Origin: Candidatus Woesebacteria bacterium RIFCSPLOWO2_01_FULL_44_24b
GTDB lineage: Bacteria; Patescibacteriota; Microgenomatia; UBA8517
Length of the DNA: 52,175 nt
NCBI GenBank assembly: GCA_001793235.1
Contig: MGHM01000015.1
Coordinates: forward strand, 1-52,175
Reading direction: 5' to 3'
Position 1 is the first letter of the stretch. Every line of letters begins with the position of its first letter. The notes under the pieces were generated by a model that was given only the letters and a program-made list of their open reading frames with translations, did not search any database and had not been told where the DNA came from. Of the stretch, positions 28,773 through 29,636 are shown piece by piece. The translations under genes were made by a program, and so were the position numbers.

Positions 28773-29636
28773 ATGCCCGTTCAGCGCCTGAGCGAGGCTC
28801 ACTCGATTTCTCTTTTGTATCATGATATTTTTGGTTATCCCATGCGCGAGAGTGAGCTTGCTAGGTGGACTGGCGGCAAAGCGCTACGGCTAACTCGGGC
28901 CAGACCAAGGGTAGAGGCCTCAAGCGGATATTTTTTTCTTAAAAACCGGGGAGAACTCGTTAGTCAAAGGGCTGGGCGGGAGAACGCATCCAGAAAGATG
29001 ATGAAAGTTTTGTCCCACGCAAAGTATATTTTTGAGGAGAATAAAGTTATTTTAATGGTTGGTATTACAGGCTCTTTGGGTATGGCAGCAGCACATGAGC
29101 ACTCGGATATTGACCTTCTTGTAGTGACCAGAGCAGGGAGACTTTGGAGTACACGCGCAAAAATAATATTTTCTCTTCTAAAACATAAAGTAGCAATTAG
29201 AAGAGCCGGCGTGGCCAAGCAGGGAGACAAACTTTGCACGAACATTTGGATGGATGAGTCGGATTTAGTTGTTCATGAGCACAATGCCTATACCGCTCAT
29301 GAACTTGCTCAAATTGTACCGCTTATAAATCGCGAAAGTACTTATGAGAAACTGATGGCAGTAAATAGTTGGATACTCGACTATTGGCCCAACTCTGTAG
29401 TAAGTAGCATGAAGCGTGTAGCAAGGGAAAAACAGAACCATACTACATTCTACATGCTACATTCTACACTTGAGAAAGTGGCCTACTTTCTGCAAAGGTT
29501 ATATATGAGCAGGAAAATCACTCGTGAAATAGTCACCCCCACACGGGCTTTTTTTCATCCCTTTGACTGGAGCAAGAAAGTAATAAAAGAATTGGAAACA
29601 AGAGGGGTACTTGACAAGAGCGTTAAGTCTTCCTAA
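28773..29636 (+). CDS. Pol-beta-superfamily nucleotidyltransferase-domain protein of unknown function (start chosen at ATG 28773)
   Basis: VGITGSLGM...SDIDLLVVT motif; KLCTNIWMDE; AHELAQIVP. Confidence 0.75.
   Translation: MPVQRLSEAHSISLLYHDIFGYPMRESELARWTGGKALRLTRARPRVEASSGYFFLKNRGELVSQRAGRENASRKMMKVLSHAKYIFEENKVILMVGITGSLGMAAAHEHSDIDLLVVTRAGRLWSTRAKIIFSLLKHKVAIRRAGVAKQGDKLCTNIWMDESDLVVHEHNAYTAHELAQIVPLINRESTYEKLMAVNSWILDYWPNSVVSSMKRVAREKQNHTTFYMLHSTLEKVAYFLQRLYMSRKITREIVTPTRAFFHPFDWSKKVIKELETRGVLDKSVKSS
29394..29470. repeat. In-frame hairpin of two inverted heptamer arrays
   Basis: Left arm TCTGTAG TAAGTAG CATGAAG CGTGTAG (29394-29421); right arm CTACATT CTACATG CTACATT CTACACT (29443-29470); 21/28 identical to the reverse complement; 21-nt loop. 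Confidence 0.7.

Follow-up and report, generated by a model that had tools for sequence, protein, structure and literature searches.

A hairpin of 77 bases lies in frame within a gene for a nucleotidyltransferase-domain protein of Candidatus Woesebacteria bacterium RIFCSPLOWO2_01_FULL_44_24b. The stretch of DNA analysed, referred to here as the window, is the 52,175 nucleotides of contig MGHM01000015.1, and the hairpin occupies positions 29394-29470 of it. The hairpin is a member, without an open reading frame (ORF), of a family of heptamer-array inverted repeats that brackets the genes of four-helix-bundle (4HB) proteins of the PF05635/TIGR02436 type. What is conserved in it is the nucleotide sequence: invariant GTAG/CTAC cores recur every 7 nt, and of the three positions in each spacer two vary freely. 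The reading favoured here, with a probability of about 0.6, is that the hairpin is an old, translated-through, ORF-less element of the intervening-sequence (IVS) type that is kept at the nucleic-acid level, probably as a set of class-specific recognition sites, by a mechanism that is proposed below.

Structure of the hairpin and its host gene

The left arm (29394..29421, + strand) consists of four NNNGTAG heptamers, TCTGTAG, TAAGTAG, CATGAAG and CGTGTAG, in the third of which an in-frame TAG is replaced by AAG. The junction unit CAAGGGA and the loop follow at 29422..29442 (+); this segment reads caagggaaaaacagaaccata and contains GGGAAAAACAGAACC, a motif that is found again in the corresponding place of the related genome G073. 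The right arm (29443..29470, +) consists of four CTACNNN heptamers, CTACATT, CTACATG, CTACATT and CTACACT. An earlier reading of the window, made from the sequence only (the sequence-only reading), had described four GTAG-type units, a 21-nt loop and four complementary units, and this is exactly what is found; the arms are reverse-complementary at 21 of 28 positions by hand count.

The right array is detected by Tandem Repeats Finder with a period of 7 and 4.3 copies. The pattern CTACANNCTACANNCTACA, with at most two mismatches, has four matches in the 52-kb window, on both strands and all within the hairpin, against an expectation of 0.02 from shuffles. The shuffles, together with a lag census of the genome, rule out chance and low complexity as the source of the arrays. 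The hairpin is predicted to fold as RNA into an interrupted stem of 24 pairs (-28.5 kcal/mol, z = -3.9), and as DNA with -13.8 kcal/mol (z = -2.8). The sole Rfam match of the hairpin is spurious, 21.8 bits to a plant miRNA precursor model with a gathering score of 80, and no known RNA family was found. The hairpin is not an assembly artefact, since it is also present in the independent assembly of a relative (locus L069) and in seven more orthologs from other samples.

The host gene (28731..29636, +) codes for a conserved protein with a nucleotidyltransferase domain of the Pol-beta type, and its match to PF18765, at 24 bits, is just below the cut-off. The hairpin is in frame in this ORF, as the sequence-only reading had stated, and is translated as VVSSMKRVAREKQNHTTFYMLHSTL. 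The gene is found in 99 of the 139 genomes of the order. Here and in the closest relative, its neighbours are the gene of a solute-binding protein on one side and groES-groEL on the other; in the other orthologs fetched the gene comes after that of the solute-binding protein, and groES is next in most. The AlphaFold model of the protein, with 34 homologs, is confident (pLDDT 88.8), and a structure search with the protein gives weak fold matches in the PDB, of the ANT/KNTase/MNT type. The hairpin encodes residues 222-247, which in the model begin at the end of one helix (220-227), pass through a coil of low confidence (228-240) and reach into the next helix (241-260). According to the model, the hairpin occupies a structurally tolerant linker between two helices and is translated straight through, and the earlier idea of a surface loop is a reasonable one.

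A family of heptamer arrays around four-helix-bundle genes

A search for CTACATN arrays flanking a 4HB gene, which had been suggested in the sequence-only reading, was run on the genome that holds the window (G000; 898 kb, 98% complete; other G numbers are related genomes, C numbers contigs and L numbers loci) and was positive. A full GTAG-class cassette, C20:91223-91653, contains a 4HB gene (PF05635/TIGR02436) at C20:91262-91627. The left arm of this cassette is made of GATGTAG, CAAGTAG, AAAGTAG, TATGTAG and CATGGGG, the last unit carrying the ATG of the gene, and the right arm, past the stop codon, is made of CCCATT, CTACGTT, CTACATG, CTACATT and CTACATG. The arms thus enclose the gene from its start codon to its stop codon. 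The inner junction GGG...CC(C/A) is common to the hairpin in the nucleotidyltransferase gene, the C20 cassette and the other ORF-less hairpins of G000. The kinship with the 4HB cassettes that had been proposed for the hairpin is borne out by this junction and by the cassette of identical class. The window has a 4HB cassette of its own at 25060..25513 (- strand; TIGR02436, 78.7 bits), whose gene is bracketed by AATTT-type arrays; its architecture is that of the C20 cassette and its unit class is different. This architecture was examined on more than 60 cassettes, with partial sampling in the relatives.

G000 has about 12 loci of the GTAG/CTAC class, and a control search with the reversed pattern gave none. 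Three of the loci are double-armed hairpins. ORF-less double-armed hairpins lie between genes at C20:47996-48075 and in the helicase-nuclease linker of a 969-codon ORF at C23:4555-4653. The remaining loci are solo arrays, most of which open with the junction unit CCCWTG or a near variant and have the polar layout CCCWTG + (CTACWTN)3-4. Because they start with a junction unit, the solo arrays are halves of a structured element. Ten of the 12 loci are inside long ORFs, including pth, topA, a GT4 glycosyltransferase gene and the genes of GT-C-like membrane proteins and a FemAB-like protein. Arrays with a period of 7 number 38 in G000, against 1-11 for the other periods from 5 to 12, and none are left after codon shuffling.

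These data bear on the explanation that the hairpin is a product of local replication slippage, or a repeat at the level of the peptide, unrelated to the cassettes. Heptamers have been reported to be the commonest long simple repeats in bacteria, and polymerase slippage has been proposed as their origin (PMC4679880, PMC4692102); the peptide of the array in pth, described below, also resembles the ancestral helix. Selection on the peptide, however, cannot create the period, because an array of period 7 passes through the three frames in turn. The arms are inverted copies, the array pattern has a chance expectation of 0.02 matches, the unit class recurs with its polar junction unit at about 12 loci and round a 4HB gene, and the array loads of individual genomes are class-specific. 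Identical 18-25-mers at six or more loci of G048 suggest a shared order of units beyond chance, which also counts against slippage. This explanation is very improbable.

In-frame arrays of G000 were also seen in several other genes. The GT4 gene directly downstream of the C20 cassette has an in-frame solo CTAC array at C20:90617-90649, about 600 nt into the gene, which reads PHATSYMLHST; the peptide YMLHST is common to this protein and the nucleotidyltransferase. A 4HB cassette stands immediately upstream of the same GT4 gene (MR[IV]A[IL]VHDYL...) in many genera (loci L100, L103, L104, L105, L106, L111, L113, L115, L120, L122 and L123), and its arm class varies with the genus: GTAG, TGAATTA, TATGCNA, TAGTATC or GTATAAN. 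In the window, valS (- strand) has an in-frame array of CGAAA-class heptamers at 22247-22310 with an 11-bp hairpin, read as ETKIRNSKHEIRTRP, in a variable linker ahead of the anticodon-binding domain. Relative to E. coli ValRS, no change of length is obvious. The tsaD gene (- strand) has in-frame octamers ATTGTTNN at 24341-24372, read as KQSNNLTIEQ, and in-frame TTCGAAT heptamers at 24463-24493, read as FEILNSKSELN.

Constraint on the DNA and avoidance of stop codons

The closest relative for comparison is L069, whose protein is 67% identical to that of the window gene. No stretch of the gene is better conserved than the hairpin, which has a nucleotide identity of 87% against 68% gene-wide. 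Third codon positions are identical in 92% of cases within the hairpin, compared with 51% over the gene as a whole. The amino-acid identity of the hairpin, 72%, is below that of the flanking blocks, the third positions of which are only about 50% identical. All the cores are intact, and the differences are at spacer positions or resemble rearrangements of whole units.

A heptamer array runs through the three frames, and therefore every third GTAG unit would yield an in-frame TAG. Across nine orthologs, TAG is changed in all eight units in which it would fall in frame and kept in 23 of the 24 in which it falls out of frame. Edits that remove in-frame TAG stops are the sole systematic departures from the consensus. 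The avoidance of in-frame TAG explains both the odd unit CATGAAG and the CTAC orientation of the solo arrays within genes.

The slot in orthologs

The hairpin occupies a slot between DYWPNAV and EK.AY.LQ, where each of the 34 homologs aligned has a linker that is variable and not conserved. In 12 of 30 orthologs no other window of the gene has a lag-7 signal as strong as that of the slot, and the unit classes differ. The DNA of these 30 orthologs shows slot arrays or array hairpins with units that include GATACTA, CGAAATN, GTATATN, GAAGAGN, AGTACNN and AAATCCG/TTCGTGC, and z-scores of the hairpin folds go down to -6.6. G071, G072 and G073, three species of one genus, have three different slot classes. 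GTAG-class slot hairpins are present in at least nine orthologs from separate assemblies, with protein identities of 42-67% to the window gene. Seven of these orthologs were chosen in a wider homolog set by peptides suggestive of GTAG units, and the fetched DNA had a GTAG/CTAC hairpin in seven of seven. Many orthologs, that of the congener G015 included, are without any slot hairpin.

The sequence-only reading had expected a lineage-specific insertion. This expectation failed: since all 34 homologs have a linker at the same point, and since orthologs have periodic slots and GTAG hairpins in their DNA, a simple lineage-specific insertion is ruled out. The pattern named in the sequence-only reading as evidence to the contrary, a conserved peptide with no periodicity of the DNA, is not found in the orthologs; the peptide is not conserved and the periodicity recurs. 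Judged by these sequence comparisons, the hairpin is old and inherited, not freshly inserted.

The hairpin had also been taken for a version, resembling a miniature inverted-repeat transposable element (MITE) or a scar, of the cassette family. Membership of the family and the lack of an ORF stand. Recent insertion, or the excision of a 4HB cassette from the nucleotidyltransferase gene, is improbable. The architecture and the GGG...CC junction are indeed those of a cassette minus its ORF, and the slot of ortholog L132 keeps CATGGGG...CCCATT round a loop of 10 nt. The slot is about 84-111 nt long where it has a double-arm hairpin and 63-75 nt long in most orthologs without arrays, and therefore the hairpins add roughly 7-12 codons to a linker that existed already. 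Genome-specific bursts, described below, show that the family copies itself. Against these points, the hairpin, including the stop-avoiding CATGAAG, is common to the 67%-identical relative, and seven more distant orthologs also have it. No direct repeats of the kind left by target-site duplication are visible beside 29394-29470. A clean empty site was not seen in the orthologs, all of which have the linker and many of which have other hairpins there. A nucleotidyltransferase homolog long enough to bear a cassette was not found among the 120 proteins listed, the longest of which has 312 residues.

The variability of the linker among orthologs recalls the targets of diversity-generating retroelements (DGRs), in which case the linker would be a variable region rewritten by retrohoming. 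The DGR accessory protein Avd likewise belongs to the PF05635 fold family, and the 4HB proteins are Avd-like. No reverse transcriptase (PF00078) match, however, was found in the 98%-complete G000, and the variation is by whole heptamer units and classes rather than by adenine-specific substitution. A DGR target is scarcely credible and is effectively refuted by the lack of PF00078 in G000.

Pairing and sequence recognition

In eleven GTAG-class hairpins, the core positions pair between the arms with frequencies of.93 (G),.65 (T),.98 (A) and.96 (G). The low value of T, 65%, is due to the stop edits. The three spacer positions pair with frequencies of.31,.87 and.41, against about 43% expected, so that only the middle one pairs; with two of three positions at or under chance, compensatory pairing at the spacers is rejected. 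In 33 cassette stems there are 33 mismatches that would be of the G.U type in the sense RNA and 33 of the A.C type, which are G.U on the antisense strand, and this equality gives no sign of RNA structure in the form of a wobble asymmetry. High pairing of the core, pairing no better than chance at two spacer positions and no excess of G.U together indicate that the conserved object is a core motif every 7 nt and not a perfect helix. It consists of two opposed arrays of four to five units each, for which sequence recognition is a better fit than the stability of a stem.

In 125 genomes the loop motif GGGAAAAACA(N)GAACC, which is 15-16 nt long, has just two occurrences, one in the slot of G000 and the other in that of G073. 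The motif is read in different frames in these two proteins, which share 41% identity. When the hairpins are anchored on the loop they are in register, and the left cores are GTAG in G000 and GTAT in G073 (GTAA in one unit), the right cores CTAC and ATAC (TTAC in one unit). As far as the sequences indicate, the difference between the cores is a concerted, arm-compensated change. Classes also differ at the position of an array in pth (described below), which has CTAC units in G000, G033 and G073 and four ATAC units in G103, with no indel in the protein; ATAC is the class of the nucleotidyltransferase slot of G103 itself.

The same data weigh on the possibility that the hairpin is a cis-regulatory RNA that benefits the host and controls the nucleotidyltransferase mRNA by RNase III cleavage, by a translational pause or by binding of a 4HB protein; the likeness to the cassette arms would then reflect a shared regulator. 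The strong predicted RNA stem (-28.5 kcal/mol, z -3.9), the conservation of synonymous sites, the recurrence of slot hairpins in many orthologs and the loop motif kept at 41% protein identity are consistent with this. G000 also encodes RNase III, and the stems of Coxiella IVSs are substrates of this enzyme (PMC4990558). On the other hand, the hairpin is missing from many orthologs, including that of the congener G015, and its array class is also present in unrelated genes (pth, topA, GT4, helicase-nuclease) that have no function in common. The pairing of two spacer positions at chance and the lack of an excess of G.U over A.C argue against selection for pairing in the sense-strand RNA. Such a regulatory role is unlikely.

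Arrays in the 23S rRNA gene

The 23S rRNA gene of G000 (C20:41500-44424) has two insertions of the same kind. An inverted pair of CTTAA-type octamer arrays at C20:43731-43798 (LSU model position 583/584) lies in an ORF-less insertion of about 100 nt at the tip of helix 25, and on contig C5 this class brackets a 4HB gene. Another ORF-less insertion, of about 135 nt and rich in AATTT-type heptamers, is found at the tip of helix 45, at about C20:42957-43079 (position 1218/1219). These two helix tips are the classical IVS sites, and both are filled in G000 by array hairpins. A third array hairpin, of the GAGTAAAA class, is found at C20:44514-44591 in the spacer between tRNA-Ala and 23S (locus C20:41500-44672, L139). 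The hairpin of the nucleotidyltransferase gene is not located in 23S rRNA; it is inside a protein ORF.

In Coxiella, the helix 45 IVS contains a PF05635 ORF and has three to four tandem GACAGAT heptamers ahead of the ORF start; its 28-bp stem is a substrate of RNase III (PMC4990558). The nucleotidyltransferase hairpin has the same hallmarks, namely terminal inverted repeats, a long stem and tandem heptamers in the arms: 21 of 28 positions are complementary, 24 pairs are predicted, and there are 4+4 heptamers. An RNase III gene is present in G000.

Array loads of genomes and the four-helix-bundle proteins

Loads of arrays are specific to genomes and classes. G000 has 17 arrays of three CTAC units and its congener G015 has none; the counts for three species of genus g30 are 1, 109 and 21. 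In G048, the genome with 109, identical 18-25-mers occur at six loci at least, within larger intergenic mosaics. The mosaics of G048:C1 (L157-L164) are near-identical at six or more loci and show the classes AAATTAC, CTTTTAA, CTAC and CATAATA in succession. To judge from their sequences, the mosaics look like a recent burst of a composite element. TATAC arrays number 81 in G069, 26 in G073 and 15 in G099, and the cassettes of these three genomes have TATAC-type arms; there are 3 such arrays in G000 and none in G015, G048, G072 and G033. Of the 25 genomes that encode a close homolog of the 4HB protein of C20, 16 have at least five CTAC arrays, against 14 of the 100 that encode none (Fisher p = 1.4e-6, phylogeny ignored).

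A strict rule by which the class of the slot is that of the resident cassette is rejected. Among the cassettes sampled it holds for G000 and G073, and it fails for G103, G116, G071, G072, G098, G038 and G081, and also for the CTAC burst of G048.

A RAYT-like mobiliser of the arrays is unlikely. The one Y1_Tnp-like ORF of G000, C8:2499-3749 (- strand, 417 codons), has no flanking arrays, and the gene-bearing form of the family encodes the 4HB protein only and no transposase. The ORF has an N-terminal IS200/RAYT-like domain with an HFH motif (28.5 bits) fused to a long C-terminal region and is, on sequence grounds, a candidate for an enzyme that acts on hairpins.

Proposed mechanism

In the favoured reading of an old, ORF-less IVS-type element, the units would be sequence-specific recognition sites, about five in each of two opposed arrays, and the perfect stem would not be the object that is preserved. 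The uniformity of the units would be maintained by slippage or gene conversion at the level of the unit, combined with correction of one arm by the other, that is, by concerted evolution. Copies may be spread or refreshed within a genome class by class, in bursts. The most likely partner acting in trans would be the 4HB protein of the matching class, by analogy with REPINs and the RAYT gene. The arms of the transcript can presumably pair into an IVS-like stem, and the RNase III of G000 might cut it.

Several observations weigh against this reading or parts of it. The gene pth of G000 has two arrays, C20:79346-79373 and C20:79465-79500. The CTAC array codes for SLATYYMLLST at a conserved helix, without an indel relative to 16 orthologs. 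It replaces the helix with the length unchanged and a similar peptide, so that some copies may have grown from a pre-existing similarity and were never inserted. The right arm at 29443-29470 is identical to the array at C20:90617 at 26 of 28 positions and to the cassette arm at C20:91223 at 25 of 28, hardly more than to the orthologs (24-25 of 28); with so few differences, concerted evolution and plain purifying selection are inseparable. G048 has the largest CTAC load, and CTAC arms are missing from all three of its 4HB cassettes with a match to the C20 protein. A 4HB gene of the matching class is therefore either not obligatory or was missed. In several genomes the class of the slot hairpin was not found among the resident cassettes, the sampling being incomplete. 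Finally, the arm classes differ among cassettes whose 4HB proteins are 53-62% identical to that of C20, even at the syntenic site upstream of the GT4 gene, and a specificity of protein for class is thus only putative.

A wider proposal is put forward tentatively, as one that is rather doubtful: the hairpin arrays and the PF05635 proteins would form a single genome-wide, class-specific protein-nucleic-acid system. The 4HB protein, probably a pentamer, would recognise about five units of its own core, at sites in rRNA helices, intergenic spacers and ORFs. Sites in ORFs would overprint tolerant linkers and be held at synonymous positions, and both arms would switch class in concert. If this were true, the nucleotidyltransferase hairpin would be a working site of the 4HB-array system, and there would be a protein partner for the heptamer repeats of bacteria at large.

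Comparison with known systems

The hairpin is of interest as a coding sequence under a second constraint, in which the constrained object is a nucleic-acid element with a period of 7 nt. It joins several puzzles that have stood apart: how 23S IVSs originated, what the very common PF05635 bundles (the "IVS protein" or Avd-like type) do, why heptamers are in excess in bacteria, and the in-frame palindromes of the Rickettsia type. Segments of this kind distort alignments, estimates of dN/dS and the annotation of proteins of the candidate phyla radiation (CPR). G000 has one array family in three settings (flanking genes, in rRNA and in ORFs), each with a defined class, which makes a direct test of binding or cleavage feasible.

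The literature found on the subject covers the heptamers of Coxiella IVSs, the heptamer excess and TAACTGA arrays, and in none of it are arrays connected with PF05635 genes or with in-frame slots that are conserved. The heptamer direct repeats of cyanobacteria and Beggiatoa (TAACTGA; PMC4679880, PMC4692102) are likewise tandem 7-nt units with many variants, with a patchy, apparently horizontal distribution and no known mechanism. Unlike the arrays described here, they are mostly intergenic direct repeats, and these two papers do not tie them to inverted pairs, PF05635 genes or conserved in-frame slots.

The 23S IVSs of Coxiella burnetii and Leptospira (PMC4990558) share with the hairpin the terminal inverted repeats, the long stem and the location at a site that tolerates extra sequence. 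They occur with and without an S23p/PF05635 ORF, as does the heptamer-array family. The host of the hairpin, in contrast, is a protein-coding gene, and for this reason the hairpin is not excisable; it is translated, and its consensus is edited against stops.

Rickettsia palindromic elements (RPEs) are palindromic repeats that lie in frame in protein genes (PMC10969869). As in the present family, which has about 12 dispersed loci in G000 with terminal inverted repeats in the three double-armed ones, these palindromes are dispersed in unrelated housekeeping ORFs, are read through and are placed where the fold of the host protein can accommodate them. RPEs measure about 150 bp, have a conserved peptide in each family and lack 7-nt units, whereas the units described here rotate through three frames, the slot classes differ among orthologs and a gene-bearing 4HB form exists.

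In the REPIN-RAYT system (PMC3116915, PMC3337134) there are, as here, dispersed hairpin doublets and a single-copy gene flanked by its own class of repeats, the population sizes are specific to class and lineage, and vertical persistence is long. The flanked gene in the present family codes for a small four-helix bundle (TIGR02436) with no known catalytic motif, unlike RAYT, which is a Y1 HUH transposase, and most copies are inside ORFs, whereas REPINs are extragenic. The hairpin resembles an IVS in a protein gene, an RPE and a REPIN, yet fails a defining feature of each.

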